A stretch of DNA of 64,000 nt from an uncultured Gammaproteobacteria bacterium (lineage in GTDB: Bacteria > Patescibacteriota > Patescibacteriia > UBA1558 > 2-01-FULL-52-15): the NCBI GenBank assembly GCA_964402565.1, contig CAYOCJ010000002.1, positions 391,340 through 455,339 on the forward strand. The letters are read 5' to 3'. The notes beneath the pieces are model-generated. The model was given only the letters and a program-made list of their open reading frames with translations, ran no database searches and was not told the origin of the DNA. The translations under genes and the position numbers were made by a program. Shown here piece after piece: positions 13,451-33,557 of the stretch (its first letter is position 1; each line of letters opens with the position of its first letter).

Positions 13451-15184
13451 ATGCTTACAAAAACAAAAAAACTAATCCTGCTCACGCTTATCGTGACCTC
13501 TGTTGCGATAGGCTTTTTTATTTTTAGAAGCACTGCGGTATTTGCGCAAGCGTCCCTCGACTTCCCCACAAGTTTCGCTGGATTCAGTTCGCAAGATTTG
13601 AAAACCACGATCGAGAATATCGTTCGCATCGTTCTTGGCTTCATCGGATTTATCTTTTTGTTGCTGCTGCTCTATGCAGGTTTTGTATGGATGACGTCAG
13701 GCGGAGACGAGAAGAAGATCACGCGGGCAAAAAAGATCATCGCAAGCTCCGTGATTGGATTATTGCTGACGCTCTCGGCGTATGCCATCGCAAGCTTCAT
13801 AGTGCAGCGCCTGACCGGAGCCGCTGAGAATGGATCTGTCGGCAGCTCAAGTACTGGACCCGGAGGTTTTGGCTATGCGCTCGGCTCTGGTGCTTTGGAA
13901 AGCCATTACCCGGGACGCAATGCCCGCGATATTCCTCGCAATACCAATATCTACATCACGTTCAAAGAAGCTATGGATGTGAAGACCATTTGCGATCCGG
14001 GTCCTGACGGCACCTACGGAACTCCTGATGATCCAAATCGCGTCAATACGGCAAGCATACAGCTCAAAGATATGAATAGCCTGGAGCCTGCTGACTCGAA
14101 CGATACAGCGAACGACGATACGCTTGAGGGAATTACCTGTCAGCCGACGGACGCATCATTGAAGACCTTCAAATTCGACCCGACTGCAAACCTTGGCACG
14201 GGAACGGGTAATGTGCCGTATAATGTGATTTTGGTTCCGCATCAGATCAAAACCGCTGACAATGAAGATGCCTTAGCGTTCGGATATAGCTGGCGCTTCA
14301 CCGTGAACTCGGTTCTGGATGAAACGCCGCCAAAGATCATAAGCGTGTATCCGAATATGGGGGACATAGTGCCTCGCAACAGTATCGTGCAGATTAACTT
14401 CTCAGAACCAGTAGATCCGACCAATGCAGCAGGTTTTTATTCTCCAACGTCAACTCCGGCCTCGCTGTATAACAGTATTACTCTTGACGATCAACCAGCT
14501 CCAAAACCAGCGAATGCTTACTACTTAGCAGGAACGTATGCATCGGCCAATCAATATCAATCTACGGAATTTATTTCGAATGAACTCTGCGGTCAGAATT
14601 CTTGCGGCGAAAAAGTGTATTGTCTGCCCGGATTAATTACTATCTATGGCGAGGTAACCAGCGCTATTACTGATATGGCAGGCAATCATCTCGATGGAGA
14701 GTTCCCGGCACCGTATACATTTCCGTCAGGTGATGGCACGGCCGGAGGTAATTTCGACTGGCGATTCCAGACCACGAATACCCTGGACTTGAAACCGCCT
14801 TTGATGCTGACGCGAAATCCTGGCAGGAATGCGACTGATGTGGATGTGTACAAGCCTATCACCATGGATTTCAATAAAAAATTGTCGGCTTCGAGCCTGA
14901 CCTCGACCAATGTCGGCTTCTATCGCACCTATCCGTATCCAGGAGGCACGGCGTGGGACGATCAGATAAACTATTGGGTTAGTAAAGACGATACAAAGAA
15001 CTTAGATACTGATCCGGAAACCGAGACGCAGGTGATCATCGGCCATGATATTTTCAAACCGCTTACTCCGTATCATCCGGGCGCAAGTTCAGAGATCCGT
15101 GACGTGAGCCAAAACTGTTATTTCCCGGCTCAATGCGATGCGCCGCCCTATGACGGAGTAGGCAGTCTTGCAGAATGTAATTAA
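13451..15184 (+). CDS. Secreted/membrane protein: signal peptide + VirB2/TrbC-like helix-loop-helix pilin module + three SbsA-type bacterial Ig-like domains
   Basis: Signal peptide (AVFA|QA), then IVRIVLGFIGFIFLLLLLYAGFVWMTSGGDEKKITRAKKIIASSVIGLLLTLSAYAIASFIVQRLTG (two hydrophobic helices joined by a basic loop, W-M at the helix-1 end and LTG at the helix-2 end as in VirB2), then Ig-like repeats (PRNTNIYITFKEAMD..., PKIISVYPNMGDIVPRNSIVQINFSEPVDP...). Confidence 0.7.
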   Translation: MLTKTKKLILLTLIVTSVAIGFFIFRSTAVFAQASLDFPTSFAGFSSQDLKTTIENIVRIVLGFIGFIFLLLLLYAGFVWMTSGGDEKKITRAKKIIASSVIGLLLTLSAYAIASFIVQRLTGAAENGSVGSSSTGPGGFGYALGSGALESHYPGRNARDIPRNTNIYITFKEAMDVKTICDPGPDGTYGTPDDPNRVNTASIQLKDMNSLEPADSNDTANDDTLEGITCQPTDASLKTFKFDPTANLGTGTGNVPYNVILVPHQIKTADNEDALAFGYSWRFTVNSVLDETPPKIISVYPNMGDIVPRNSIVQINFSEPVDPTNAAGFYSPTSTPASLYNSITLDDQPAPKPANAYYLAGTYASANQYQSTEFISNELCGQNSCGEKVYCLPGLITIYGEVTSAITDMAGNHLDGEFPAPYTFPSGDGTAGGNFDWRFQTTNTLDLKPPLMLTRNPGRNATDVDVYKPITMDFNKKLSASSLTSTNVGFYRTYPYPGGTAWDDQINYWVSKDDTKNLDTDPETETQVIIGHDIFKPLTPYHPGASSEIRDVSQNCYFPAQCDAPPYDGVGSLAECN

Positions 15185-15185
15185 T

Positions 15186-18100
15186 ATGCATTTCAGGCTT
15201 TCATCACGATTGAAAAAGATCATTCTCGGGCTAGTACTCGCTGGAGGAGTCGCTGTCTTCACGCATAGTGCTCTCGCACAAGTTTCTGTGGATCTGCCGA
15301 CCAGCTTTGCCGGATTCAGTTCGCAGGATTTGAAATTGACGATCGCGAATATCGTGCGGATCGTTCTCGGGTTCATCGGAATTCTATTCTTGTTATTAGT
15401 TCTGTATGGAGGCCTGGTATGGATGACATCTCAAGGACAGCCTGACAAGATCAATAGAGCAAAGAAAATAATCGCATCGGCAGTTATCGGTTTGCTTATC
15501 GTATTATCCGCTTATTCCATCGCAGGATTTATCGTCGGCAGTTTACAGGGAGCGGTCAGCCCGACACCGCCAGGGCCTCCTGCTGTTTGCGGTGATGGCG
15601 CAGTTACCGGCGGTGAGCAATGTGATGATGGCAATACGCTGAATGGAGATGGCTGCTCTGCATTCTGTGCCATTGAAGGCGTTATCCCTGGATGCACATT
15701 GCCGACAGTACCTGGTAGCGTGAAAGTATGTAATGTCACCAATCCTGCCTATCGATCACAGGTCGCTGTTATCAATGGATATAACTTCGGAGCAAGCGTT
15801 GGAACGGTCACTATCAACGGCGTTGCGGTAACGCCGGTCGCTTGCGGACCATCATCTGGCTGGAGCGGCGGTTCTATCGTGGTAGATATTCCTGCAACGA
15901 TACCGCTGGGCACTATCGGAGCGCAGAACGTGGTCGTTACCCGGTCAGATTCTGCTACATGTGCTGCCGGGAATTGCGGTGTCACGAACGTCAGCATTGG
16001 TTCAAGCCCGTTCATCAGGTGTATGACGCCGAATTTCGGACCGTCAAACGGTACCGGCGACATCAAGGTTGAAGGCGGAAACTTCGGCACCGTACAAGGT
16101 AATATTGAAATGGAAGGAGCCGCGCCTGCGCCCGCGAACCGATTCCTCGTAGGAGCTGCGAATCTCATCGGACCGTGGACTAATGAAGAAGTGCACTTCA
16201 GAGCGCCGGCAGCCGGGGCCCCTCAACAAGCAGTGTCAGGCGATGTAGTGCTGGTCACTTCTACAGCAGCGCGAAGCAATGGCATGCCGTTCACCGTGAC
16301 CTGTTCTGTGGCAAGCAGCGCTTCATCAGAGTGTGCGACTAACTGTTGCACGCCTTCATTGCAATGCCGTCCTATGCTTGAATGTGTTGCAGCTGCTGCA
16401 GGAGGGCCGTTCATCTCGAGCATTAATCCGAATAATGGAGAAGAAGGGAATTATGTCACGATCAATGGAAGCGGCTTTGGAGCCGCCAGGGGAACGAGCG
16501 TTTTGCATTTTTTGTGGCCTGACGCAACCAATACAGATTATCCAAATAGTTTCCCATCGAACCCTGCTTGTACAGCAAACTGGTCAGACACCCAGATCAT
16601 CATGGAGGTTCCGCCAGTGGGCGGGGTAGGAGATGGCCCTGATTCACCGCCGAATGGCATCGTATGGGTGACCACCGGCGTGGGAGATTCAAATCAAGTT
16701 CCATTTACGATCAATGATATCGTGCGCCCGGGCCTCTGCAAAGTTTCACCGACATCTGGCTTCCCGAATCTGCCCCCGCCTTTCCATCTGAACGGAAATA
16801 ATATGTCTGGTGCTGCTCAGAAGATCTTTTTCGGCGTACCTCCGGGCATTGATGCGACCAGCCCGAACTTTATCGATGCGCAGAATGCGGATGGCATGAT
16901 CCCGAATCTGATAGCAGGCACGACGACCGTTGCATTTTCTGTGGGTGTCGGCGCTGCAACTCAGTATTCGAACCCATTGGACTTCGCAGTGCTCGGTGTC
17001 GCTGCAGGAGATCCTATCATCAATTCGGTCACTCCACTGAGCGGACCATCAGGAACCTATGTGACCATACAAGGTGCGAATTTTGGAACGACGATCGGGA
17101 AAGTGTTCCTGAGCCCCATCGGACATCCAGGATGCGGCCCCGGTTCTCCGTCGCCTACGGGCAATGATTGTCTTGCAGATATTGCATTTCCTGCGATGTG
17201 CAGCACTGATTTCTGGCGTGACGACCAGATCATTGTGAAAGTTCCGAAGACCGGACCTCCAGGCAATACGCCAGCGGGGAATTATTTCTTCATCGTTCAG
17301 CGGGCGAGCACGCCGGTGAAAACATCTCAAATGGTTTCGATACCTAATACGAATGGTATCTTTGTAAAAAATGACGCGTTGCCTGTCACCCCAGGGTTGT
17401 GCCGCATCAATCCCGTCGGAGGTCCTGCAGGAACGCCGGTAGATTATTTTGGTGAAAATTTCGGAGTCACCCCTGGTCCGCAAAGCTCAATTTGGTTCGA
17501 TAAGGATGCCGGCGTGACGACAGGTTTCACCTGGACCGATACGCAAGTCCTTGGCGCCGTCGTACCGGGCAGCGCTATTACGGGCACGACTACCGTTCAG
17601 CACAATGACCGTAATCGCAGCAATCCGATCCCGTTCTTTGTCGGGTCATGTACTTCAAACCTACAATGCGGCAGCGCTACGTGTTGCAGCGGCGTGTGTC
17701 GCGTGGGTGCTTGCAATGCAACGACGCATGATGAAAACAACTGGCAGTTCACGTCAGGACAATATGATTTCGATCTTGAACGCAGACAGCAATGCACCGA
17801 GGGAATGCAGACACCGACGCCATTCCCGTATGATCATGTGAATATGAACTGGGATGGATTCTTTGACCCGGTCATCCTGCCGGTCTATGACGAGAATGAT
17901 CCAATAACCAATGCGCCTCTGGACGTTGCGATCGCCGCAGAATTTAATAGGCCTCTAAATTATGCGACCATCGAAGGTCCGTTGCCGGCATTTACTGACA
18001 ATGGTGTCCGCATTTTCAGATGCAATGCTGCAAGCCCGACGTTTAATGGCACCGGATGTACTGAAGTTACCGGTGATGGAGATTTTGCACCGCTCGGCAG

Positions 18101-21100
18101 CGTTGGCTTCAAGTGGACATTGCATAGTGGCCTGAAATTGAATCCGGAGACGTGGTATGAAGTTCGTCTTGATGACGGGTCCGGAACGCCGACAAGCCGC
18201 ATACAGGCAGTCGACGGCAGCTTCTATAAAGGAAGCCAATTCCTCGGCGATGATACTTCTTTGCAGGAGCCTGATGACTTTAAGTGGCATTTCAGAACAC
18301 GGACCGTGGTACAGGGAAGCTGCGAGATCAATGCGGTCTCGCTCAATCCGGCGACGTTGACCGTGCCGGTCGGCGGCATAGGCGGGCCGATGGTCGCCGT
18401 CCCGACCAGCGCTCAGTGTTATGTGTGCGGCGGCGATTATCTGTATGACTGGGATCCAAATCCTATCGGCGCAGCTCCATATGCAACCTATAATCCCGTC
18501 AATCCGCCTTTTTCCTATCAGACTAATTTTTCAGGTTTGAATATAACGCCTGCACCGGTAGATATAACGGCGACATTGCGCGGGAGCAGCAATCCATCAG
18601 GTATTCCGATTACGAGCAATACCGCAGCGCTGAGTGTCGCCTTTATACCGCCGTATGTGACGAGCCATTCTCCTGATTCAAGCTGTGAAGCGGTGTGCAG
18701 GAACGTAGCGCCCTTTGCGACATTCAATATGAATGTCCGCTCGTCAACGATCACGACTGCCAATATACAGATACGACAATGTAATGCAGCGGATCCGCTG
18801 TGTACGACATATACAGGCGGGCCAGTGCCGATCACGCTCGTCCCATTACCAGCTGCACCAGATACCAATCGTGTCGACATCACGCCGACCGGCGGTTTGC
18901 TTCCAGCAACAAAATACCGCGTTATATTGACTAACGGCATTCAGAATTCACAGGGCCAGGGTCTTACATTATTGAACTATCCTTCAGGCGCGCCGACATC
19001 GTATTCATGGACTTTCCAGACTTCATTAGCGATTTGCGAAGCTGATGGTCTCAATGTGACGCCGGTCACTGCAACCATACCATCGCTTGGCGGCACGCAA
19101 GATTATATTGCGCATCCGACCGCTACGCTGAATTGCGGATCAGGCCCTGTGCCAGTTGGCATTGATGCAAATCGATACAACTATGGCTGGTACTCAAATA
19201 ACTTCACCGTAGCAACGATGATGTCGAGCACGTTGAACCAGGGCACTATGCAGGGAGTTAGTGCAGTTTTGGGTATACCGCCCGGAATAACGCAAGCGCA
19301 TGTAGATATGACGAATAAGGCTGGCAATCCAGCTGTCAATCTTTCAGCTGAAGGCGAAGTGGTTGTAAAAGATTCCAGAAAGCCGATAAATTTCATCGGC
19401 CATAGGCCTGATGATGCGCCGCATTCACCGCCGGAAAACGCTTCAGCTGCATGTGCGGTGCAGCCACCCGGAACGGCCGATCCGCTGCAATGCGCGAATC
19501 AATGCAGGAACGTACAGGTCAGTGCATTCTTCAGCACTCCCATTGATCCGAATTCATTTGCATCAGGACCTCCTTCAGGACTTGTTGCGCGCTATACGTT
19601 CGATGATGGAACCGGCAAAGATGTCGTCGGCGGCAATACTGCTGTTCTTGCAGCTGCACCGAGCGACCCGGCTGCTGTGTCAGGCGCACAATGCGTACTC
19701 AATAGATGTATGGACCTTGACCTCGGAGCTCCGCCGTTCAGCGCAAGTTCTGATAACATGACGGTGACTAATTTCAGCGGACTGCCAACCAATGAAATCA
19801 GCATTTCGGCTTGGGTAAGCGCAAGGACATTCACCGGCGTGGGCCAGAGAATTCTTGGCCATGATTGGGCGACTACCAATACTCCTGGGTGTACAGCTGG
19901 TCAGGCAAACGTTGGGGGTAACCCAGCGAACCCGCCATGCGTCTATAATCATGGATGGCTCTTATATGCGTATGCTCCGGGCGATTTCTATTTCGGAGTT
20001 TACGGTTCGCCGTGGAACGATCAGCATGTTGCTCGCTTTACAGCACCGACCGCATCTCCAAATACGTTGTATCATCTGGTAGGCACCTATGATGGATCGA
20101 TCGTGAAACTGTATGTGAATGGCGTGGCAGCTCCAGATGCAAATGGCTGGAGCCCGTCAACGCCGTCACCGATCGTACTTGATACCACAGGCGATGTAGT
20201 GTTCGGCTCTTCATTCGATGGCGCTCTTGATGATGTTCAGATCTATAATCGCGCCTTGTCACCGGTCGAGGTTAGCCAAGTACGCTTGATGGCCACTGGC
20301 GCTGCAGGCGCATCGGCCAATTTTAATGTGACTGACATGGCCACTGGTGCTGTCGTACCTGGAACGATCTCGGTCCATAATTACCAAGACCCTGCCTCGG
20401 GTGTTTGTACGATAAATACAGCAGTCGTTTGTAATCCCTCTCTCGCATGTCCGGCAGGAGCAGGTGAATGCAATTATACGCGGGGACGTGTCGACTTTAC
20501 CCCGGCGCTTGCATCTACCGCTGCATCTACTGCAGGGCTGGTTTCGAAGTATAGTTTCGACGCAGGGACTGCTCAAGATGAAGTTGGTGCGAATAATGGC
20601 ACGCTGAACGGAGGAGTAATCGCAACAGCGCCGAATGCTTCAATTCCGTACCTGCAAGGAGGCATGAGCCTTGATGGCGTCGATGATAATATTTCATTCC
20701 CCGCAGGGACAAACTATGACTATCCTAATTTTACGGTTTCATTCTGGGCCAAGGCAAATACGGTGGCATTGAAGCATGTCACCACAATGATCGGCAAGGG
20801 AGATTGGAATGATCCTGCGAATCACAATTGGTACCTAGGGTTTAAAGGCCAAGACATAGCCCCGCGAGATGCAACCAGTGTTTCATTCGTCTATGGTGTG
20901 CCCTGGGATAGCGGAGCATCATTAGCAATGTCCAGCTTTGATGCAACGCAATGGCATCACTATGCCGGCGTAGCTACTCCGACAAACGAGTATCTCTATA
21001 TAGACGGCACATTGCGCGCATCGATTGCGGCCGGCCACGCAAGCGTTAGCAATGGCCAGCCGGGTACGATCGGACACACAAGCTATATACCAAATCTGCC

Positions 21101-24100
21101 ATTTTTCAAAGGCGAGGTCGATGACGTACGTATTTTCAATCGCGCATTATCTGCCGGCGAAGTGAATCAGATCCGCCAAGAGGCCTTGGGCACTGCCGCA
21201 TCTCCTGGCGTCTTTGCACCAAGCACATCGTATAAAGTAAATATTTGTAATGCCGGTTCATGCTCATTGCAGCCGATCCTGAGCGATGAAGGTATGCCGT
21301 TCGTGACGCCATTGAATTTTGCCTTCAAAACAAAGGATGATGTTTGCCAGATCAGCTATGTCGAAGTATCGCCGAATCCGGCAGAGTTCACTGACCGTAG
21401 ACTCGAGTGTCTAGCGTCTGATGCGCCGCTTTGTACGAATGCAACGCCAAAAGCCATCATAGCTCAGGCGAAAGACCAGACCGGTTCTGATCTAACGGCC
21501 GCATATACCTGGCGGAAGACCATTGAGAAAGGTGGGTCCTATTCAAGTCAGATGTATGTACTGGATCAGTCAGGCACTCAGGCCCAGGTTCAGCATAAAG
21601 GCGTCCTCGGTATTGATTATAATGAGGTCACTGCTGATGGCGGCGTCGCCGGCACCGCTAAAGCTCAGGGCAGAATGGATTTCTCATTCTGCGAGAAGCC
21701 ATGGATAGGCGATACTGGTCCGAATACCGCATACTATCTGGATCCGACCTATGACTTGAAACTTTCATATTGCCGCGATGCGGCAGGTTTGAGCGAGCCG
21801 ACTGCTACCAGTACGCTCCCGAATTTGCCGGCACCGCATATCATTCGCTCAGGAACTGACTTCACATTCGGCGGCGACCTGATCAAGGAGCATGTGTTTA
21901 TCGTCGGTACGAATGTGAACTCTACCGGCACGCTGACCAGCGGAAATCCGGTACTGACGCCGGTTACCGGCATATCAACGACGAATTATCATCTCGGCGA
22001 TTTCGTGTATATCAAGCTCGATGCCCGCGATCCAGAAGGCGATTCATTCTTGTATACGATGACCGGCGAAGGCGGCGCTGATGCATTGCCTGCATCTGCA
22101 AGCTTCAATCCGCGCACCGGTGTCTTCATGTGGGTAATAGACAAAATACCGACGACGAATGGAGACGCGAATGCAAATAATGACTTTGCCATCACCTTCA
22201 ACACCACGCCTGCCTCGACCGGTGCTTCGACGGTCTATATCAACGTTGTGCCGACAACCACCACAACGCCAGTGAACCCTCCGGTGGTGAGCTTCACCAG
22301 TGCAACGGTGCCAGCTCCGCCGCCGCCAGCAATTATCGAGGGCGGAACCATGAATATCGATTACGGCAAGGAAGTCATCTTCAATACCAACGTGACCGGC
22401 TATGGCGGCGGTGCAGCCGGTGTCGTCAAATCATTTGTCTGGGATTTCCAGGACTCAGGCCTTACCTCGTATACTGATATTGGCGCGCCCACCTATAGTG
22501 CTCGGCACACGTTCCTTCAGTCCGGATTGCATCAGGTTACGTTTAGAGTACAGAATAGCGCCAATGCCTGGTCATTGCCGGCAGTCGTGAACATTATTGT
22601 CCGGCCAAAGACATCAATGCTTGATCCGTCCCTGTCTTCGCGCTCAGTGGCAATTGCAGGTTCTCCGTTCAAAGCGCTTATTGACGGTTTGCGTTCATTA
22701 TTCGCGCGAACCGCATTTGGTCAGTCACAGGGCGCTGCACCGTCAGAGGTGGCTGCTGTTTCAGTCGACGATGCTTCAACAACGAATAACCTCGTGAATG
22801 TACAGCTCTCGTGGAGAAATAACGGGACCTATAACGGCATCAAGATTTATCGAGATAATGCTGCCGTGCCGATCTATACCTCGCCAGCTGGTCCAATACC
22901 GACCACCTACACTGACCCAGGCCGTACCATCGGCACCGACTATGTCTATAAGGTCTGTGGGATTATAGGCACAGCCGAGAAATGCACTGAAGTCACGACG
23001 ACCGCTCGCCGCGTAGACTATGACATTATCGTTGCGCGCGTCTACCGGAATATTGGCATGCTTTCTGTGCGTGAATGGTATGAGGCCTATGCGCCAAATC
23101 CGACCGGCAGTCCGGCTTCGATAACGGTTGACGGTTATGACGCGATCAAGGATGGCTCCTCGGTATATGTAGGCATGGCTAACTGCGTTGACCCGGTGGC
23201 CTGTACGGGCAACCCGGGCATCTATACGAATATTTTGCTCCTGAGTTATAACGAGAATGCTCAGCAGTCTACCAAGGATATTTTCGACCAGCTCGTCAGC
23301 ACTATCCGTATTAATGAACGGTTGGTGACCCGCGACAATGGACGCGGCGCCTCGGATACCTGCAGCGGTGATGCAACGATCTCATGCGATACTGGCCATG
23401 ATGCGGTTTGTCAGGCAAAGAATGCCGGTCTCTGTACATCAGCGAAAGCAGAACTTCGCCGTGACCATAAGCGCGTCGTGGACTTGCATAGCATCAAGGC
23501 AAGTTTGGATGGCTATGCGCTCCAGCACCATTTCTGCGATGATGGAACCAATTCACGGGCGTGCAATGTTGATAGTGATTGCGGAGCGGGGCGGCGATGT
23601 ATTGCAGCGTACCCATCGCTCTCTTCAGGAAGCTATTTGGGAGGCATTTCAACGAGCCAGTGGCCGTCATGGAACGCAACCCTGGCACAGGATTTGAACA
23701 GCAGTTCATTGCCGAAAGATCCTATCAATAAATTCGGCGCAAATTTCTATTCAGCAACTCCGGCAAGCTGTCTGACACTTGTCGATGGGGCAGGCAATCC
23801 CGTGACCGGCCATGACAAGGACACGTGCTGGAACCAGAGAACATTGAAGATGCAATGCCAGAGGTATTCGGAAGTCTATGTCTACAAGAATTCCTTAGGA
23901 TCAAATTATAATCTATACGCGAATGCCGAAGCTCGAACGTGGCGCTGGGCAAACCTCGACACGCATGTCATTCTGACTGACCCGACGCTTGGCAATTTGT
24001 GCTTAGACAATGCGCGCGTCAATGCGGTGTGCGGCAATGGCGTCGTTGAGCGCTACTGTTCGAACAATAGTTCACAGTCATGCGCAGCGGATGCTGATTG

Positions 24101-26837
24101 CGGCGCTGGTAATACCTGCGTCGGTGAGCGATGCGACGGCGGATTTACGAATTATTGCGATTACCATTTTGGAGAAGCACGCTGGAATACCGATTTCACA
24201 GTCGGTTGTAATGCAACCTGCAGCGACTGGGGTGATCCGTATGCGCCAAACACCGCAACTGCCGGCCGCGCTGCATGCGGAGGAGCGTGTGGCGACGGTA
24301 TTGCTCAGACGCCTGCTTCGTCTCCGCCGGGCCCAGAACAATGCGATGGCGCAGCGCCTGCAACAACACATTGCACCAGCGGCGGGGCTGCGTATTGTAC
24401 AACGTCATGCCAGGTAGCATGTACGCAAGGCAGGCCATATAGCGGTACGTGCAATGACGGTATCGTACAAGCAGGCGAAGTGTGCGACGAAGGAAATATT
24501 TTGAACGGAACACCTGGTCATTGCAACCGAGCTTGCTCGGGCTATGGTTCTTTCTGCGGCGACGGAACGCTGACCCCTACTACTCAGACAGATCTGGGCT
24601 GCACCTGTGATTCGGCAGTCAGCTGTACGGCAGGCAGAGCTGTTATGGGCGCTGTGTGTGCCCGTTCATGCGCGGCTGCAGGACCAGCGCATCTGTATTC
24701 CTGCGTCAGCAATACAGAAGAGTGCGACACAGTCGCGGGGCTTACTAATTATAGCTGCCCTGCAAATTCAACATTGTATTGCGATACACAGTGTAACCGG
24801 GCTTGTACTGCAGACCTGAGAAATGATACTGCGGGCAACCGCCAGAGCATCCCGGTCTATGAACATTATTATAATGTTGCCAATGATGAGGATTTCGATT
24901 ATACAACCTTGAAAGTAGCTGATGCTCCCTATACGACCAAAGGCATCGCATTCTATGCAAACCCGCTAGGCGCATGCCCTGGACCAAGCGGCGTTACCGT
25001 TAATCGTTATGCGAGCACGACCAATAAGGATATTATCCTTAGGACATCGCTTCCTGCAGGCTCATGGACGCTTCTCGGCCCCGAGTTTTGTGCCTACACA
25101 GGAGCAGTAGCGGCAGATTCCAATATTGTGCCGGTTTACGACTGGGCATATTCGCCAAGTTCGAACCCGAAGACAAGTTTGCCGTCTGATTCGGATCATA
25201 AATTCTCGCGCAGCAGCTCGACAGCGCCGATCAACGGTGAAGGAACGAGTTATGTGATCCAGAATTCAGGATCGCCGATCTTCTGGGCTCGCCTCGGTCC
25301 ATTGCAGGAAACATGCGGCAATGATGTTCTCGAAGGCCTCGAAGAATGCGAACCAGGCACATACCAAGTGCCGACCGCTGAACAGGCGACGAGCGATAAT
25401 CGCCAGTATCAATGCGGCGCCGTATTTACGCCGAATGCATGCAGATTGTATGGAGGCTGGTGCGGCGATGGAGCAAAGAATGATCCATTCGAACAATGCG
25501 ATGAAGGTTTGCGATTCGTCTGTTCGGGGAATGCTGCAACGACCTGCAAGAATGATGATGATTGCAGCAAGCTCGGCTACGGCACCTGCCTCGGCAATGG
25601 CGCGCCCTGTAATAATGCGGCAGGAAACTGCACCTATTGCACTAAGTCATGCGGCAATGGCCTGATACCGCGCAATTATTGCGGCGACGGCATCGTGAAC
25701 TGCGGTGTGGACGCTATCTGCGGTAATGCAGACGATGTAGAGATCTGTGATGACGGAGCCGATAATGGCAAATCCTTGAAATGCAATGAGACGTGCAGCG
25801 GTTTGACCGGTACCGTATGCGGCAAGAATGGCGTCGAGAGATTCTGCAGCAATAACTCAGCTAATAAATGCGACACCCCGGGTAATCAAACGCTCTGTAC
25901 TACCGGAGGAGGCGTCTGCACTGGTGAAGTGTGTGACGATGGCGTCAACAATGGCCGCTGGACCAATACCTGCAGTAATAATGCAGATTGCAGGACTGAT
26001 GCTGATTGCGGCGCATTCGGCCCTTGCGGATCAGGTACGCCGCATGCATTCTGCAATTTCAGCTGCTTGGGCCCGACGGTTCCGTATTGCGGCGATGGCG
26101 TCGTGGAGGCAAGAAATGCTGGTCCTGATGGTAAGATCGTTTGTAGTAATGATGCTACGAAGACCTGCACGCAAGATGCTGCTGGTGACGCATATTGCAG
26201 AAGCCTTCCTGGCGGGACTCCCGCGGATGCGTGCAATAAAGATTATGTGACTGAGGTTTGTGACCTTGGCGCTGCGGTGAATGGCCAGCCAGGACAATGC
26301 AATGCGTCCTGTACTGGTCTTGCTCCATCACAATGCGGTAATGGCACCATTGATAATGGACGATGCACTATTAATGTGAGTAAGCCATGCACATCTCCTT
26401 CGGATTGTACTTCTGCTGAGGGGCAATGCCGGGGGACTGGGACTTGTACACTGAATGCGAATAAAACATGTCAGGATGATAGTGGCTGCTTGGCCGGAGA
26501 AGGTACCTGTGCAGGAGTAGAGACTTGTGACCAACCTTCGTCAGCGCCAGTCTTGCAGGCATGTAATGACGACACCTGGGGAGCACCTGGTAAGCCTGGT
26601 CTACAAACTGTCGGGTGTAACCTCTGTGTCTCTCAAAGTACCCAATGCCATGCATTCGGTTTGAAGATCTGGTCTGATGGAGCAGATGTTGCTTACCTGA
26701 ACGGGCATATGATGCTGCTTGATTTGGCGCCGCCGGGAGCACAATGCGTCGCAGATCCGTCACCGAATGGCGCTGATTATTCTGATGCCATTGCCGAAAG
26801 CCCAGCTCAGCCCAACAGTAATAAATGTGTTCCATAG
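15186..26837 (+). CDS. Giant (about 3880 aa) cell-surface protein: VirB2/TrbC-like pilin module + TIG/Ig-like domains + two LamG domains + PKD + FN3 + large cysteine-rich repeat array
   Basis: N-terminus paralogous to 13451 ([81 protein letters not shown]). First [27 protein letters not shown] repeat, then TIG-like repeats ([20 protein letters not shown]). LamG pairs ([19 protein letters not shown]...[41 protein letters not shown]...[15 protein letters not shown]). PKD (FVWDFQDSG...[17 protein letters not shown]). At least ten CG[DN]G...E.CD.G repeats through the C-terminus. Start taken at MHFRLSS (15186). Confidence 0.85.
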   Translation: [3883 protein letters not shown]

Positions 26838-26859: not shown

Positions 26860-29800
26860 ATGTCTCGAGTGAACATGAAAAGGCATTTTACCTATAGCAA
26901 ACAGAAGACAAAGGCGCATGAACTCGGTGCGCTTTTGGCATTATTGATATTCGCAGCTGGTTTTTTTTCCTATGTCCGTGTTCAACACATCAAGATACGA
27001 GATCTTGGCAAAGCACAGCCGGTCTATGCACAGGCTGCTCCGAATAATATTACATTTGTCCAGCAAAATGCGACCGGGACATCAGGCACTATTGCGCCAA
27101 ATGTTATACTGACCGCGCCGGTCACCGCAGGCAGCTTGCTGGTGCTTTCAGTAAACATAGTCGGTGATATCACGCATTCGATCAATAGCGTTACTGATAC
27201 GCAAGGGAATACCTGGGTACAGGCTATCGCGAAACATGATCATAATGATGCAGTATTCGTCGCAAGTCAGGAGCTATGGTATGCAGCCAATGCCAGAGCC
27301 GGGGCAACGACCATCACAGCAAATCTAAATGCGACATTAGGAGCGACCAATGCACGGCTCTACGCGCATGAATACCAGGGTGTTGCAACCTTGAATCCGC
27401 TCGATCAAACATCGTGGGCCATTGGCTTTGATCCGCCGCCATCTGCAAATGTGATATCTCCGTCGCGTACAACCTTTTTCCCGAACGAACTTATTTTTGC
27501 AGGTTCAGAAACGTGGGGTACACCGAACCCAGGTCCTGGATTCACCACGCGCGGCACCTTGAATTTGGACTATACGGAAGATAAGAATGTGAGCACAGTC
27601 GGCAGCAATAACGCGATTGTTCAGGTTGCTTCATGTGGAGGCAATTGCAGCTGGATGATACAGATGGCAACCTTCAGGGCATCTGCGCAGCCGAATCCAG
27701 TGCGTTTCTATAAGATGGACGAAGGATCAGGTTCCACCGTGCTCGATTCGTCAGTGTTCAATGCTCCGGGCACCAGTTACGGTTCGCCGTTGCCGACCTA
27801 TATCACTGGAGTCGGTCCATCCGGCACTGCTCTATATTTTAACAATGCCTCACAGTGGATCGAGAGCGATTGGCCTCCATCGCCTTCGCTTGATATTAGA
27901 AATGATTTTACTATTACCGCCTGGGTCAATTTTTCTTCAGTGGTGAACACGTATCCGCGTATTTTCCAAAAAGGAAGGCAAATAGCAAGCCCGACTGCAT
28001 TTTCATTAGGCATCAATACTCCCGGTGGAGTGTTGCGTCCTGAAGTTCGTGCACGCATCGGAGGCACCGAGTACTCTTCAGTGGACCCCTCGAATATGAG
28101 CATCAATACCTGGCATCATATTGCCGGCGTTCGCAATGGCACCAGTTTGAAAATCTTAGTTGATGGCGTTTTGAAAAATACCGTTGCCATACCAGCGGGC
28201 ACCATCGACCTGAATAGCGGCCAGACCGCATACTTGGGCGGCGGTCCGGTCGATGGCAGAATGACCGATGGCGGCATGGATGAGGTGCATGTATCAGCCC
28301 GCGCATTAAGCGATGCAGAGGTGCTTGCTGAATATCAAAGTTATGATAATCAGCCGCCTTCTCCCATTGTAAATTTGAGCCCCGCAGATGCGGCGACCGG
28401 CGTTTCTATCAATCCGACGTTGACCGCAACAACTGCATCAGACGCCACCCCTCCGATACAATATAATTTTGAATTATTCACGACGCCTGGCTGCAGCGGC
28501 GCCTTCACGCAGGCACGAGGCTACGCTGCTTCGACGAGCTGGATCCCGTCAACGCTCACCATGGGGACTACCTACTACTGGCACTATCGTGCGCGGGATT
28601 CAGCTGCATCGCCGAATGCGAGCGGATTCAGCGCGTGCACCTCATTCACCGTCGTTTCTGATACTAATCCGCCGACAGGAGTGGGGAATGTTTCTCCAGC
28701 CGATGCATCCGCAGGTATTTCTATAAACCCGACGCTTGTTGCCGCAACAGCAAGTGATGCTACGACGCCGGTACTGTATAATTTTGAACTGTGGTCCGGA
28801 GCTGGATGTACCGGTACGCTGCTTCAGTCAGTTGTGAATTATGCCCCGACAAATTGGAGCCCCACGACGCTTGCCTACGGCACTACGTACTACTGGAGAA
28901 ATCGAGCTCGTGACTCTGTAACACCGACGCCAAATCAAAGCGCGTACGGGCCGTGCTGGGCATTTACAACCTCATTGGTAGGCCCGGTAGCCTATTGGCC
29001 TTTCAATGGCAATGCGCAAGATGCAACAGGTAATGGGTATAATGGTACGTTGCAAAATGGACCAGGGTATGTCGCAGGGCGCGTGAATCAGGCTATTGGA
29101 ATGAATGGCATCAGTCAGCGCGTCGATATGGCGAACCCCGCCAGCGGGTTAACAGATATTCCTGCGAAGACCATCATAGCCTGGATCAATATGTCCTCAG
29201 GCTCAGGCAATACCTATAAAGATATTCTGGTGAAAGGCGATGCAGGCTGCGGCTGGTGGTTATCGGTCATGAACAGCAGCTTTGTACATTGGGGTCAATG
29301 CTTCTCTTCTGGCACATATGGCTCATGGGGGTCCCCGGCAGGATCAATTACGGCCAACCAATGGTATCAGGTAGCGGTGACCTATGATAATTCTAGCGCA
29401 GCGAATATTCCAACGTTCTATATTAATGGATCTCCGACTGCTTTGACCACGATCGGCAGTCCGATCGGCACGGTGAGCAGCGATGCACCATATTTGGTTT
29501 CAGCAGGCGGAGAGATACCAAATAACAATGAAAATTTTGGCGGCACTATTGATGAAGTGCGTCTTTATAATCGGGTACTGTCCGCTGCAGAGATTTCCAG
29601 CATTTATGCAGCTGACGCTGCCGCTGTGTGCGGAAATAATCTAAAAGAAACTGGCGAAACATGTGACGGTGCTGATCTTGCAGGCGCATCATGCACGACG
29701 CTTGGTTATTTCGGCGGCACCTTATCCTGCAACCCCACATGTACAGGATATGTCACTTCTTCCTGCACGAATTGCGGCAATAATACTATCCAGGCCGGTG

Positions 29801-31245
29801 AAACATGTGACGGCACGAATCTCAATGGCCAAACCTGCATTAGCCAGGGATTTGCCGGCGGAGGCACGTTAGCGTGTAATGCGTCATGTACTGCGTTCAA
29901 TACCGGTGCCTGTATCGCACAAACCTGCGGCAACAATCTTCGTGAAGGAAGTGAAACATGCGACGGAACTGATCTGGCCGGCCAATCCTGTACCACGGTG
30001 CCTGGGGGTTATATCGGCGGCACGCTTTCTTGCCAGCCAAGTTGTGCTGCATTCAATACAGCGAGCTGTACGCCGCCGCCGGTCACGACCGTACCCGATC
30101 AATCAGCTCTTTCCACTTCTGATCTCAGGCCGGTAGATGCTGGAGGTAATTCAATTGCGGGATCATGGGAACGGGACGGCGCTAATGTAGTCGCGATCAA
30201 AGTGTGGGCTCCTGCGGGACTTTCTCGCAGCTTCGAAGCAGTCTATACCAGCCCGACGATCAATACTATCTTTTATACGTATAATAACGCCGCGAATTGG
30301 GCATGCTCGCATACGTATACGCCGGGCTGGAATCAAATAAGTTGCCCGACACATTGTTCGAATAATCGAACCATAGCATGTACATTGGGTAACAATACCC
30401 CGTGCGGCGCTGGTCGATGCACTTCAGATTGCGACCCACTCGAGCCATCGACGACCTGGCGATCGCCGTTCTCCTATACGGGCAATGCGGCGTATCCGCT
30501 GTGCAGAACGAGCTATCCCAATTTTGTCGGCAGTTCGGCGAAGTGGATCTGGGGCGATAGCTGCAGTCAGAATGTGGTCTATTGCAGGCTTGAGTTCGGT
30601 ATTGATCTTGGCGGAGGATCGCCCTATCAGCCTGGCGCGTATTGTGGCGATGGTATCGCGCAAACATCTGCATCGAGTCCGCCAGGACCAGAGGAGTGTG
30701 ATAATGGGAGTAACAATGGAGCATGTCCGAAAACATGCAGTTCACAGTGTCTGAGGAATGACTGCACATGTACCGGCCCTCTCTGTAGCGGATGTTTTAT
30801 CACAGGTACGAAAGTATTAACACCGTCCGGCCCTCGCGATATCAATGACCTTAATGTTGGCGATCCGGTTGTATCGTATGATGAGGCGACAAAGCAAAAG
30901 GCTATTGCGTATGTCGAGTTGCCCCGGTCTTACTCGCGGGACCATTACTATGTGTTAAATGGTACTATTCGCGTCACTAAGGAGCATAGATTTGCTGTGG
31001 TAGATGCAGAAGGAACGATCACCTGGAAACCAGTCATGGATCTTTCTATTGGAGACAGGTTCGTGCTTGATACAGGGAAGACCATATCTCTTGCTTCGAA
31101 AGTGCTGCATACCCCGGCGCAATCAATCCAGGTCTTTAATCCCGCACTTTCATATCCGCATACCTACTATATCTGGGATGGCGCTGAATATATTCTTGTT
31201 CATAATGCAAAGTGCACAACTCCACGTTGTGGCGGAGGGCCATGA
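26860..31245 (+). CDS. Large (1461 aa) surface protein: TM anchor + LamG + 2x FN3-like + LamG + 4x cysteine-rich repeats + C-terminal Hint (Hedgehog/intein-like) domain
   Basis: N-terminal TM helix. LamG (VRFYKMDEGSGSTVLD...MDEVHVSARALSDAEV; VAYWPFNGNAQDATGNGYNGTLQNG...IDEVRLYNRVLSAAEI). Two FN3-like repeats (NLSPADAATGVSINPTL...YYWHYRARD). CGNN..ETCDG repeats. Hint domain from CFITGTKVLTPSGP through TKEHRF to ILVHNA. Confidence 0.85.
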   Translation: MSRVNMKRHFTYSKQKTKAHELGALLALLIFAAGFFSYVRVQHIKIRDLGKAQPVYAQAAPNNITFVQQNATGTSGTIAPNVILTAPVTAGSLLVLSVNIVGDITHSINSVTDTQGNTWVQAIAKHDHNDAVFVASQELWYAANARAGATTITANLNATLGATNARLYAHEYQGVATLNPLDQTSWAIGFDPPPSANVISPSRTTFFPNELIFAGSETWGTPNPGPGFTTRGTLNLDYTEDKNVSTVGSNNAIVQVASCGGNCSWMIQMATFRASAQPNPVRFYKMDEGSGSTVLDSSVFNAPGTSYGSPLPTYITGVGPSGTALYFNNASQWIESDWPPSPSLDIRNDFTITAWVNFSSVVNTYPRIFQKGRQIASPTAFSLGINTPGGVLRPEVRARIGGTEYSSVDPSNMSINTWHHIAGVRNGTSLKILVDGVLKNTVAIPAGTIDLNSGQTAYLGGGPVDGRMTDGGMDEVHVSARALSDAEVLAEYQSYDNQPPSPIVNLSPADAATGVSINPTLTATTASDATPPIQYNFELFTTPGCSGAFTQARGYAASTSWIPSTLTMGTTYYWHYRARDSAASPNASGFSACTSFTVVSDTNPPTGVGNVSPADASAGISINPTLVAATASDATTPVLYNFELWSGAGCTGTLLQSVVNYAPTNWSPTTLAYGTTYYWRNRARDSVTPTPNQSAYGPCWAFTTSLVGPVAYWPFNGNAQDATGNGYNGTLQNGPGYVAGRVNQAIGMNGISQRVDMANPASGLTDIPAKTIIAWINMSSGSGNTYKDILVKGDAGCGWWLSVMNSSFVHWGQCFSSGTYGSWGSPAGSITANQWYQVAVTYDNSSAANIPTFYINGSPTALTTIGSPIGTVSSDAPYLVSAGGEIPNNNENFGGTIDEVRLYNRVLSAAEISSIYAADAAAVCGNNLKETGETCDGADLAGASCTTLGYFGGTLSCNPTCTGYVTSSCTNCGNNTIQAGETCDGTNLNGQTCISQGFAGGGTLACNASCTAFNTGACIAQTCGNNLREGSETCDGTDLAGQSCTTVPGGYIGGTLSCQPSCAAFNTASCTPPPVTTVPDQSALSTSDLRPVDAGGNSIAGSWERDGANVVAIKVWAPAGLSRSFEAVYTSPTINTIFYTYNNAANWACSHTYTPGWNQISCPTHCSNNRTIACTLGNNTPCGAGRCTSDCDPLEPSTTWRSPFSYTGNAAYPLCRTSYPNFVGSSAKWIWGDSCSQNVVYCRLEFGIDLGGGSPYQPGAYCGDGIAQTSASSPPGPEECDNGSNNGACPKTCSSQCLRNDCTCTGPLCSGCFITGTKVLTPSGPRDINDLNVGDPVVSYDEATKQKAIAYVELPRSYSRDHYYVLNGTIRVTKEHRFAVVDAEGTITWKPVMDLSIGDRFVLDTGKTISLASKVLHTPAQSIQVFNPALSYPHTYYIWDGAEYILVHNAKCTTPRCGGGP

Positions 31246-31326
31246 AGCAATGAGTCGTGTTGCTTTGTGCTGTTTTTTAGTGCATAATTAAGTATGAAAT
31301 ACTCCTAGTCATAATATCGGGCAACT

Positions 31327-32223
31327 ATGTTTGAAGACATAAAAAAGAATGATGAGAATGTGACCGCTGGCAACCCTTCAGCAGTTGAAGATATGTTTGG
31401 CAAAGTTGACCCAACCCCAGATATAAAGAGCGCGGTGCAGAGCGGTAAATTAACTCCGGTAGCTTCATCAATGGCAGCTCCTCAACCGCCGATGCCGCAG
31501 GCGCCGATGGGTACCAAGATCGGACCTCCGAATCCATTGACCAATCTTTCACAGCTCGATCAATGGAGCAAAAAACCTGCTCGCCGCAGCATGAGAATGA
31601 TTTTGATCGTTGTTGCAGCTTTGATCGTCGTCGGCGCTGCTATTGCCTACTTCTTTTTTATGACGCCGACAGAGGGTTCGAATGCAACTGCTAAAAATAC
31701 TACAGCGAATACCAATGCCACAACGAACACCGATACTACCGCCAACGCACAGCCAACACCTCCTCCGACTGCGAATGAAAACGGTAATCAGGCTCCAAGC
31801 ATACCATCCAATGCCCTCATTGACTCTGATGGCGACGGGCTGACAGATGTAGAAGAAGCTGTCGCTGGCACTGATCCTCATCTAGCTGACACTGATAATG
31901 ACGGTTTGAATGATCGCGATGAACTCTATGTACACAAAACAAACCCATTGTTAGCTGATAGCGATAACGACGGCCTCTCTGACCGCGACGAGATCTTTAC
32001 CTATAAGACAAATCCTATGAACCCGGACACCGATGGCGATACCTATCAGGATGGGGTTGAGGTGCAAAATGGGTATAATCCGAATGGCCCCGGAAAACTT
32101 CCTCCGACAGAAACTCCACCGAACGCACCTATAGATCCAGCCCCAACGCCCGCACCTGCTCCCACACCTTCTCCAGCTCCTACACCTACGCCCGCACCTG
32201 CTCCGGCTCAATATACATACTAG
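31327..32223 (+). CDS. Type II membrane protein with thrombospondin-type-3-like calcium-binding repeats and a Pro-rich tail
   Basis: Pro/Gln-rich N-segment, TM helix (ILIVVAALIVVGAAIAYFFF), T/N-rich linker, DSDGDGLTDVEE / DTDNDGLNDRDE / DSDNDGLSDRDE / DTDGDTYQDGVE repeats, then a PAPTPAPAPTPSPAPTPTP tail. Confidence 0.7.
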   Translation: MFEDIKKNDENVTAGNPSAVEDMFGKVDPTPDIKSAVQSGKLTPVASSMAAPQPPMPQAPMGTKIGPPNPLTNLSQLDQWSKKPARRSMRMILIVVAALIVVGAAIAYFFFMTPTEGSNATAKNTTANTNATTNTDTTANAQPTPPPTANENGNQAPSIPSNALIDSDGDGLTDVEEAVAGTDPHLADTDNDGLNDRDELYVHKTNPLLADSDNDGLSDRDEIFTYKTNPMNPDTDGDTYQDGVEVQNGYNPNGPGKLPPTETPPNAPIDPAPTPAPAPTPSPAPTPTPAPAPAQYTY

Positions 32224-32249: not shown

Positions 32250-33557
32250 ATGCCAGACGAGCAACAGCCATTAACAGCCGAACAGCAACCTCAAGCTCCC
32301 GAGGCTTCGATGCCGCAGGCATCTGCGCCCTCTGGTTCAATTTATACCATGCCGGATAAGTTCATGATGGGAGGCGGGCAGCCGCGTTTTTCAACTGGCG
32401 CAGCACCCGCAGGCTCTTCAGGCGGCGGCGGTTCAGGCAAACGGATGGTGATCATCATTGCTATACTGGCCTTATTTTTAGGCGGCATGACAGCCGGAGC
32501 TTACTTTTATATCAATAGCGGAGGAGACTTCTTTGGTTTGCTTTCAACAAATGAGCCTGTAGCGCCAGCAGTTCCGAACCCGCCGCCAGCCACCAATCAG
32601 CCAGTTGCGAATACCAATACAACACCTGAGAAACCGCAAGATGATCAATCAAAACTTGCTCGCGATGTGCAGCGTTCGAAGGATTTGGTCGTTCTTGCGA
32701 AAGCCCTCCAGGATTATTTTGCAAAATATAATGCATTTCCTCAGATCTTAGACTCGATTCCGAAAGATATGCTGGCAGAGCTGCCAAAGGATCCCTTGTC
32801 AGACAAGGCCTATGAGTATACGCCGCTGGATAATCGTGCTTCATACGGCATCGGCATTGTTATCGAGAAAGAGTTAACTTACAACGGCAAGACCTATCAG
32901 TCTGGTCCTGTTGTTCTGCATTCAGAGGGCTATCAGACAGCAACGTCTACACCGCCAATTACGGATCAACCAGTACCGCCGACCCCTGCCCCTGTTGATG
33001 TGAGCAATCTCGATTCAGATTCAGATGGTCTGACAGCCGCAGAAGAAAGTTTATTCGGCACGTCACCTTCGAACCCTGATTCAGACTCTGACGGGTACCG
33101 AGACAATGTGGAAATTAAGAATTTTTACAGTCCGGTGGAAACAGCTGCGGTGAAATTAGACCAGGCCGGCCTCGTGAAATTGTATACGAACGATGTTCAA
33201 AAGTTCAGTTTCTATTATCCGAGTTCCTGGGTCGTGAATGCGCCTGATGCGGACGGAGCTGAAACTCTCGTCACGACAGGGACTGGCGAAAATTTCAGCG
33301 TCTCGGTGAAGGAGAATGCGGACAATAAGACTTCCTGGGAATGGTATACGCAAAATATCAGCCATGACTATAACCCAAACAGCGTGTCCATCGTGCAGAT
33401 CAGCGGACATGAAGCGATCAAAACATTGGACGGTCTGCAGGCATATCTGGCTGTTGGCGGGAAAGTATATCTCATCACGTATAATCTGAATACTGAGTCA
33501 GTGATCCGATACCCATCCATCTTTGCGATGATGCTGGATCATTTCACGCTTCATTAA
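32250..33557 (+). CDS. Type II membrane protein with pseudopilin-like (GspG/type IV pilin-like) motif and TSP3-like repeats
   Basis: Pro/Ala-rich N-segment, TM helix (MVIIIAILALFLGGMTAGAYFYI), LAKALQDYFAKYNAFPQ...LPKDPLSDKAYEY (resembles GspG ALEGALDMYKLDNSRYPT...LPQDPWGSDYQ), then DSDSDGLTAAEE / DSDSDGYRDNVE repeats. Confidence 0.6.
   Translation: MPDEQQPLTAEQQPQAPEASMPQASAPSGSIYTMPDKFMMGGGQPRFSTGAAPAGSSGGGGSGKRMVIIIAILALFLGGMTAGAYFYINSGGDFFGLLSTNEPVAPAVPNPPPATNQPVANTNTTPEKPQDDQSKLARDVQRSKDLVVLAKALQDYFAKYNAFPQILDSIPKDMLAELPKDPLSDKAYEYTPLDNRASYGIGIVIEKELTYNGKTYQSGPVVLHSEGYQTATSTPPITDQPVPPTPAPVDVSNLDSDSDGLTAAEESLFGTSPSNPDSDSDGYRDNVEIKNFYSPVETAAVKLDQAGLVKLYTNDVQKFSFYYPSSWVVNAPDADGAETLVTTGTGENFSVSVKENADNKTSWEWYTQNISHDYNPNSVSIVQISGHEAIKTLDGLQAYLAVGGKVYLITYNLNTESVIRYPSIFAMMLDHFTLH

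Follow-up and report, generated by a model that had tools for sequence, protein, structure and literature searches.

The 64,000-nucleotide window analysed here (contig CAYOCJ010000002.1 of assembly GCA_964402565.1, positions 391,340 to 455,339) comes from an uncultured bacterium that is titled a gammaproteobacterium and placed by GTDB in the Patescibacteriota. It contains a gene for a predicted exported protein of 1461 amino acids, which ends in a Hint (Hedgehog/intein) domain of the bacterial intein-like (BIL) type and a tail of a few residues (Table 1). Ahead of this domain, the protein is modular. The hydrophobic segment near its start (Kyte-Doolittle maximum of 2.55 in a 15-residue window) is a candidate signal anchor or signal peptide. 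The Pfam model Laminin_G_3 (E-value (E) 1.9e-41) covers two stretches of the 1461-residue protein, the second LamG copy lying at about residues 718-920, where it is flagged by weak matches to Toxin_R_bind_N (718-905) and Pentaxin (834-920). The Cys-rich repeats that follow are of a type that scores as DUF4215 in the adjoining giant protein and in a relative, P0011. The GC content is 0.47 in the Hint region and 0.52 in the remainder of the gene. Protein P0002 (1456 residues), from metagenome contigs of SRR12313479, is the window protein read from a start five codons downstream. With slashes at the two ends of the Hint domain, the C-terminus reads ...CTGPLCSG/CFITGTKVLT...VTKEHRF...VFNPALSYPHTYYI...ILVHN/AKCTTPRCGGGP, followed by the stop codon.

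Table 1. Features of the Hint-bearing gene and its product, in positions of the window.
Feature	Position	Strand	Basis or remark
Gene of the predicted exported multidomain protein, 1461 residues, Hint domain at its end	26860..31245	+	Open reading frame (ORF) list, Pfam
Hydrophobic segment LGALLALLIFAAGFFSYV, residues 22-39, candidate signal anchor or signal peptide	26923..26976	+	Export predicted
LamG/concanavalin-like domain, residues 340-488	27877..28323	+	Pfam Laminin_G_3, best stretch
Three Cys-rich CGNN..E.GETCDG repeats, DUF4215-like, residues 924-1036	29629..29967	+	Read from sequence
Additional repeat copy of the CGNN..GETCDG type, residues 1261-1283	30640..30708	+	Read from sequence
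Gly1311, at -1 of the scissile bond predicted at the N-terminal junction, SG/CF	30790..30792	+	Sequence
Hint domain proper, Cys1312-Asn1449, 138 residues, type A BIL-like	30793..31206	+	Pfam, PDB sequence searches, AlphaFold2, Foldseek
Block A, CFITGTKVLT, with putative nucleophile Cys1312 (30793..30795)	30793..30822	+	Sequence, family alignment
Block B, T-K-E-H, residues 1373-1376 (Thr1373, His1376)	30976..30987	+	Alignment A2
Block F-like strand VFNPALSYPHTYYI, residues 1425-1438	31132..31173	+	Alignment A2
Block G, ILVHN, with His1448 and terminal Asn1449 (His-Asn, 31201..31206)	31192..31206	+	His and Asn invariant in A2
Tail AKCTTPRCGGGP, residues 1450-1461, 12 residues: Ala at +1, Lys at +2, two Cys; no cargo domain	31207..31242	+	Sequence
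Stop codon TGA	31243..31245	+	ORF end
Terminator-like hairpin and T-run, overlapping the stop of the Hint gene	31241..31279	+	Weak evidence: 1 site found, 0.9 expected; z-score -1.2

The initial annotation of this DNA, made from its letters and ORFs, had proposed a BIL-type Hint domain at the C-terminus of the protein. Profile searches, a structure model and comparison with solved structures bear this out, and reveal that the C-terminal 138 residues are a real Hint domain of the BIL type. In a phmmer search of the PDB the top match was 2lwy_A, a 'bacterial intein-like domain' (E 1.4e-7), aligned over its full length. A profile built from 20 relatives again placed 2lwy first (E 2.7e-31, 111.6 bits), followed by 8w20 (2e-20) and the BIL2 domain of Tetrahymena (4e-20). 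True inteins reached a best E of 2.4e-10 and at most 43.6 bits in this search, and none of the Hedgehog entries matched at E ≤ 1e-3. AlphaFold2, when run with a 20-sequence alignment, returned an all-beta model with a predicted local distance difference test score (pLDDT) of 92.2, whereas a two-sequence alignment gave 41.7; the tail was predicted to be disordered (pLDDT < 50). Foldseek found 54 PDB matches to the model at E ≤ 1e-3, and those listed were all inteins, BILs or Hedgehog Hog domains, the top ones being Hint-fold proteins with a probability of 1.00 each. The best was 2lwy (TM-score 0.79/0.89, root-mean-square deviation 1.9 Å), then Tetrahymena BIL2 (6y75/6tmm, TM-score 0.79-0.84), and then mini-inteins and Hedgehog (1at0). 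A six-frame hidden Markov model scan found no Hint domain elsewhere in the window, so that the copy at Cys1312-Asn1449 is the sole one.

The predicted catalytic positions are all kept in the window domain: Cys1, the TKEH of block B and the final His-Asn. In the family alignment (A2) the block B His is invariant and the Thr nearly so, and the block aligns with TFDH of 2lwy. The block F-like strand carries an Asn in place of the Asp usual for inteins. This Asn is nearly invariant in A2, and the 'VYN' of block F is also present in 2lwy.

Type A BILs are defined as ending in His-Asn, lacking a +1 nucleophile and residing in non-conserved bacterial proteins (PMC4031507, PMC7765530, PMC7664689). Their activity is mainly cleavage, with splicing possible through aminolysis of the thioester by the freed amine of the C-flank (PMC4031507, PMC7664689), whereas type B BILs show no similarity to intein block G (PMC4031507). 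By every sequence-level criterion, the window domain is classed as a type A BIL, which settles the type that the initial annotation had left to an alignment, with 2lwy nearest. It ends in His1448-Asn1449, its +1 residue is Ala1450, and it spans 138 residues with no homing endonuclease. Its host protein has a predicted N-terminal hydrophobic anchor and an N-terminal part that varies relative to the orthologue described below. In sequence it is nearer to the type A BIL 2lwy than to inteins or Hog, in a comparison that held no type B BIL structure; type B is ruled out by the ILVHN end. A Hog domain is ruled out by the 12-residue tail, the His-Asn and the lack of a Hog match in the profile search, the G/CF junction being the only feature that the two share.

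Among known systems, the type A BIL CthBIL4 of Clostridium thermocellum (2LWY) is the best match in both sequence and structure. The two share a mini-Hint of about 138 residues with Cys1, TxxH, the 'VYN' of block F, a His-Asn end and no +1 nucleophile, and both reside in non-conserved secreted host proteins. CthBIL4 and its kin are reportedly treated in Amitai 2003, Dassa 2004 and Aranko 2013, and the splicing C. thermocellum domain of Dassa 2004 is said to have a native Ala at +1. The window domain differs in that its host is a Patescibacteria surface protein and in that its identity to 2LWY is only 26%. Moreover, described type A BILs sit in variable regions between two substantial flanks, whereas the C-flank here is only 12 residues long (2-30 in relatives) and includes a conserved Lys.

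Could the domain be a canonical mobile intein that inserted near the end of the gene? The Hint fold, Cys1, the terminal His-Asn and weak matches to the intein models TIGR01445 (E 0.031) and Intein_splicing (E 0.17) are all in keeping with this. However, the domain has Ala at +1 and lacks an endonuclease, and the host is a hypervariable surface protein rather than a conserved enzyme site. Inteins score far below BILs in the profile search, and the GC content of the Hint region is not markedly foreign. We regard the probability of such an insertion as negligible, as the +1 Ala and the context effectively refute it.

To place the domain in a wider family we used an exhaustive phmmer search over 1.84 billion representatives, which returned 4416 relatives at E ≤ 1e-3, of which 263 also reached E ≤ 1e-10; word-indexed searches had returned 1 and then 14. 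Residues were counted in 194 full-length domains from the top 150 proteins, which are cluster representatives. Position 1 is Cys in 169 of these domains and Ser in 13 (182/194 together), and His-Asn are the last two residues in 181/194. Position -1 is mostly Gly (81) or Ser (42). At +1, Lys predominates (115), followed by Ala (28, mostly with Lys next), and just 15 domains have Cys, Ser or Thr there.

Most of the closest relatives share the terminal layout. In a ranking by per-domain score, at most 30 residues separate the domain from the C-terminus in 9/10, 16/20 and 36/50 of the closest relatives. The initial annotation called a Hint domain on a surface adhesin of the candidate phyla radiation (CPR) unusual, which was overstated: the terminal layout is the norm among the closest relatives and occurs on many kinds of exported protein. 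The carriers are diverse and extracellular, with DUF4215 and dockerin, fn3, Listeria-Bacteroides repeats (Flg_new) or type IV pilin-like N-termini, and an N-terminal signal or anchor was found in 37/47 short-tail proteins, several of the remainder being truncated fragments. Contig ends as a source of apparently terminal Hints are ruled out by the genes of P0011 and P0106, which are internal to their contigs and have genes downstream. The short tails span 2-30 residues and are unconserved apart from Lys, which is present in 46/48 against 18.8 expected from composition. Lys stands at +1 or +2 in 34 of the 48 tails, where 5 would be expected, and 10 tails end in Lys.

The window protein has one close relative in an index of 5.8 billion proteins, P0001, which is 55% identical over the Hint domain. 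Its locus (L001) is syntenic with the window through the Hint gene and the genes of a TSP3 protein, a membrane protein, YbeY, FtsA and FtsZ. The Hint-bearing frame there (L001:1094-2743) has 549 codons and ends HN/EKCETC, while the source annotation of this frame covers 174 residues only. The L001 protein keeps Cys1, TKEH, His-Asn, the Lys at +2 and a Cys at +3; the loss of Cys or His-Asn from orthologues, which the initial annotation had named as evidence against a Hint domain, is thus not seen in this protein or in most of the 194 relatives. Apart from the Cys-rich repeats, the N-terminal parts of the window and L001 proteins do not align. As the Hint region does align, the Hint domain is the conserved element on a variable carrier, and the carrier has evidently been remodelled between these relatives, as judged from their sequences, with the Hint end retained. 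Two broader searches gave less: a 5-sequence alignment found no relatives in 185,579 species genomes, and a scan of metagenome contigs found no orthologues, only a distant sub-family with tandem Hint and Tim44 domains.

The absence of cargo after His-Asn, as stated in the initial annotation, likewise holds up: 12 residues follow, and then a genuine TGA. The annotation had the correct sequence before the stop, KCTTPRCGGGP, and counted 11 residues because it placed the Ala with the domain; the tail after Asn is this Ala plus KCTTPRCGGGP. TGA terminates 4/46 long ORFs of the window, and the 3889-residue ORF contains no in-frame TGA, which indicates that the standard code applies in the window. 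Read-through past the TGA of the Hint gene would add only 14 codons. A recoded TGA, or cargo hidden beyond the stop, is ruled out by these three observations. As the terminal end is shared with a syntenic orthologue of 55% identity, the absence of cargo is not the result of a recent truncation. The subgroup has conserved this arrangement of a terminal Hint and a minimal Lys-bearing tail, which does not represent the decay of a toxin gene.

These data bear on the proposal that the domain is a remnant of a polymorphic toxin, i.e., a pretoxin Hint (PT-HINT, PF07591) whose C-terminal toxin was lost and which was left at the end of the protein without function. PT-HINT is the best-scoring Pfam family, and its members likewise occupy the C-terminal end of secreted proteins that are large and multidomain. 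In addition, 8w20 ranks second in sequence similarity among the solved structures. It is a chain of 1368 residues deposited as 'intein C-terminal splicing domain-containing protein', and about 145 residues follow its Hint (residues 1080-1224). We take 8w20 to be a subunit of a Streptomyces umbrella toxin. On the other hand, the window protein lacks a following toxin domain, its terminal layout is kept in the L001 orthologue and in most of the closest relatives, and the catalytic residues and the Lys tail appear to be under constraint. The downstream genes (TSP3-repeat protein, membrane protein, YbeY, FtsA and FtsZ) are syntenic and include no small immunity genes or orphan toxin cassettes. A toxin remnant is thus very improbable. 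With 12 residues after Asn1449 and no immunity gene among the syntenic downstream genes, a toxin-linked PT-HINT module is ruled out. A defence-system or toxin context is likewise ruled out, as a PADLOC scan gave no defence-system matches.

Slighter still is the probability that an inactive Hint fold has been retained as a structural or binding module that carries out no autoprocessing. In its favour, autoprocessing is a prediction, and some family members have lost the Cys or Ser of position 1 (12/194) or the His-Asn (13/194). Yet all catalytic positions are intact in both the window domain and its orthologue, and a purely structural domain would not be expected to retain its junction residues.

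We consider it probable that the C-terminal domain is an active, self-excising domain of the type A BIL kind on an N-terminally anchored LamG/Cys-repeat surface protein of a Patescibacterium. After export and folding, Cys1312 would attack the carbonyl of Gly1311, and an N-to-S acyl shift, assisted by Thr1373 and His1376, would yield a thioester. Separately, Asn1449 would cyclise with the assistance of His1448 and cut off the 12-residue tail. Because there is no Cys, Ser or Thr at +1, the branched intermediate of inteins could not form. Reaction of the thioester with water would give an ectodomain with a free C-terminus and a free Hint domain. Reaction with an amine would instead give a ligated product, and the most accessible amines would be the new alpha-amine of Ala1450 and, on the tail once it has been cut off, the Lys1451 side chain. 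By either route the Hint domain would leave the mature protein, with hydrolysis and tail ligation both as candidate outcomes of self-excision. The initial annotation had suggested release of the ectodomain. This is doubtful, as a protein with an N-terminal hydrophobic anchor or signal at residues 22-39 would lose its Hint domain through a C-terminal cut and its ectodomain would not be freed. The adhesin role that it assigned to the protein, and any cleavage or ligation activity, are putative.

Several points weigh against self-excision as described. Although PT-HINT (E 5.6e-7, 30.3 bits, cut-off 27.7) and Hint_2 (29.1 bits, cut-off 28.4) both exceed their Pfam cut-offs in the isolated 181-residue fragment, in keeping with the Pfam search proposed in the initial annotation, they fall slightly below them in the full-length protein (25.0 and 24.0 bits). 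The family counts come from top-150 representatives that are mutually related, and the enrichments are uncorrected for phylogeny. A signal peptide is not apparent in the L001 orthologue. The steps of the mechanism are all drawn from conserved residues and the established chemistry of the family, and self-removal from an N-terminally anchored protein has no explained function. Were cleavage confined to the N-terminal bond, in the manner of Hedgehog, His-Asn would not need to be conserved, and if the tail were merely discarded, its enrichment in Lys would be unexplained. A plain 'cleave and discard' may thus be incomplete.

The main rival to this explanation, though an unlikely one, is that the domain serves not for hydrolysis but for a transfer similar to that of Hedgehog or sortase. 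The Gly1311 thioester would be made outside the cell without ATP and resolved by a specific amine or hydroxyl, leaving a covalently attached ectodomain. Candidate acceptors are the tail Lys (through an isopeptide or peptide bond), the cell wall, a surface or pilus subunit, and the surface of a host cell. The SG/CF junction is a Hedgehog-type cleavage motif, and the Hint domain occupies the end of the protein opposite its N-terminal membrane anchor. Lys is nearly universal in tails that are otherwise unconserved, and several relatives are type IV pilin-like. The BIL2 domain of the Tetrahymena thermophila BUBL locus (6Y75/6TMM), the second-best structural relative (TM-score 0.82-0.84), provides a known case in which a Lys amine acts as acceptor. 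In BIL2, a thioester at the N-junction is resolved without ATP into an isopeptide bond between the C-terminus of the N-flank and a Lys epsilon-amine (PMC8616854). That system differs in being eukaryotic and intracellular with ubiquitin-like flanks; its identity to the window domain is 18-19%, and the window protein has no ubiquitin-like N-flank.

The Hog domain of Hedgehog (1AT0, TM-score 0.70) is likewise a C-terminal Hint on a secreted protein with a G/CF junction and thioester chemistry at the N-junction. The window domain, however, has no sterol-recognition region or similar extension, only 12 residues following it, no significant profile match to Hog, and an intein-type His-Asn whose conservation would be superfluous for a Hedgehog-type reaction. 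The acceptor of the proposed transfer is only hypothetical. Internal and tandem copies (HN/KGG/CF), too, have Lys at +1 as a rule, so that this Lys may reflect catalytic tuning of Asn cyclisation or shared ancestry and not a nucleophile. If transfer did occur, the terminal Hint could conceivably be an extracellular, ATP-independent, single-turnover ligation device, the equivalent, built into the protein, of sortase or of the cholesteroylation of Hedgehog. The thioester would then form at the tip of the roughly 1300-residue ectodomain farthest from the anchor. Candidates for the amine would be the Lys of the tail, a component of the wall or of a pilus, and a lysine on the host cell to which the CPR epibiont attaches. 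That the near-universal tail Lys and the type IV pilin-like carriers would be marks of such chemistry is a similarly doubtful suggestion.

Hint and BIL domains are well known, and their role in bacteria outside toxin release is largely unsettled. Their occurrence on secreted bacterial proteins, including C-terminal Hint-like domains, was already established (PMC2362128). In particular, Buerglin 2008 (PMC2362128) described divergent C-terminal Hint-like domains on signal-peptide proteins with conserved upstream cysteines from Myxococcus, Photorhabdus, Yersinia and others. The window domain differs from that description in having blocks A, B, F and G, which make it a complete Hint of the BIL type. 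In our incomplete coverage of the literature, we met neither a terminal module of the BIL type whose tail is minimal and bears Lys nor a Hint on Patescibacteria surface proteins. What is added here is a BIL-type domain with intact catalytic residues that closes exported proteins and leaves almost no C-flank, in a layout that is conserved across many uncultured lineages and includes a Patescibacteria surface protein encoded beside giant pilin-like proteins. Given this layout, cargo release cannot be the purpose of the domain; C-terminal maturation or thioester-driven ligation outside the cell is indicated instead. The Lys-bearing tail provides a testable handle for distinguishing splicing, isopeptide formation and hydrolysis. 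Were ligation to hold true, it would constitute a new means by which ultrasmall episymbionts attach their surface proteins covalently and a source of compact ligation tools that need no +1 nucleophile; self-cleavage alone would make the domain an ordinary new member of the BIL family.

Further observations concern the tails and carriers of the family. Paired Cys occur in several tails (AKCTTPRC, EKCETC, KTVPCVGC and SAPTCGGC among those of the window, P0001, P0030, P0068, P0097, P0106 and P0144). Directly after His-Asn, the window protein, P0001 and P0106 share x-K-C, which places a Cys at +3. Such tail Cys might be linked by a disulphide, coordinate a metal or serve as a nucleophile that is off-register. 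Hint domains also occur on the type IV pilin-like proteins P0018, P0020, P0106 (loci L034-L036) and P0054, which carry the N_methyl motif 'KGFTLIE...'; the Hint is at the extreme C-terminus in three of these and internal in one. P0106 is identical on five contigs from different samples and is adjoined by a second small pilin-like gene.

The tandem-Hint sub-family (L037-L044, e.g., L044:325-2613 and L038:5872-8526, and also P0004, P0007, P0016 and others) has a domain order of signal peptide, 'RGGGG/C', two to five tandem Hint domains, a Gly-rich stretch, a transmembrane helix and two Tim44-like domains (Pfam Tim44, E 1.8e-23). Its Hint copies are joined by HN/KG(G)/CF alone, so that the flanks would collapse to KGG repeats if every copy spliced.

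Upstream of the Hint gene in the window lie two genes (13451-15184 and 15168-26837) whose ORFs overlap by 17 nucleotides and which encode proteins of 577 and 3889 residues. Both have a double-transmembrane N-terminus resembling type IV secretion system pilin/TrbC, followed by Big_5, TIG, PKD, LamG and DUF4215 modules. At L001, the upstream position (L001:2-925, minus strand) is occupied by another Cys-rich gene, the product of which is probably secreted. Downstream of the Hint gene, the window has a membrane protein with TSP3 repeats, of the calcium-binding type (31327-32223), a 435-residue membrane protein with a weak PsbP-like region (32250-33557), YbeY, FtsA and FtsZ. The TSP3-repeat gene and the gene with the PsbP-like region are kept in L001 (2818-4768), also ahead of YbeY-FtsA-FtsZ. 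Rfam and tRNA scans of the window were empty.

The CPR origin assumed in the initial annotation is supported by SecY. The SecY of the window is 92% identical to that of the metagenome-assembled genome (MAG) CAYRBH01 (L003, CAYRBH010000008.1), which is titled 'uncultured Gammaproteobacteria bacterium', 72% identical to that of a 'Patescibacteria group bacterium', and 58-60% identical to those of Parcubacteria and Moraniibacteriota MAGs. As the relatives next after CAYRBH01 belong to Patescibacteria, Parcubacteria and Moraniibacteriota, the CPR assignment holds. Other records in the SecY list are likewise labelled inconsistently (Gammaproteobacteria, Saccharibacteria, Bdellovibrionales), and these labels look unreliable.

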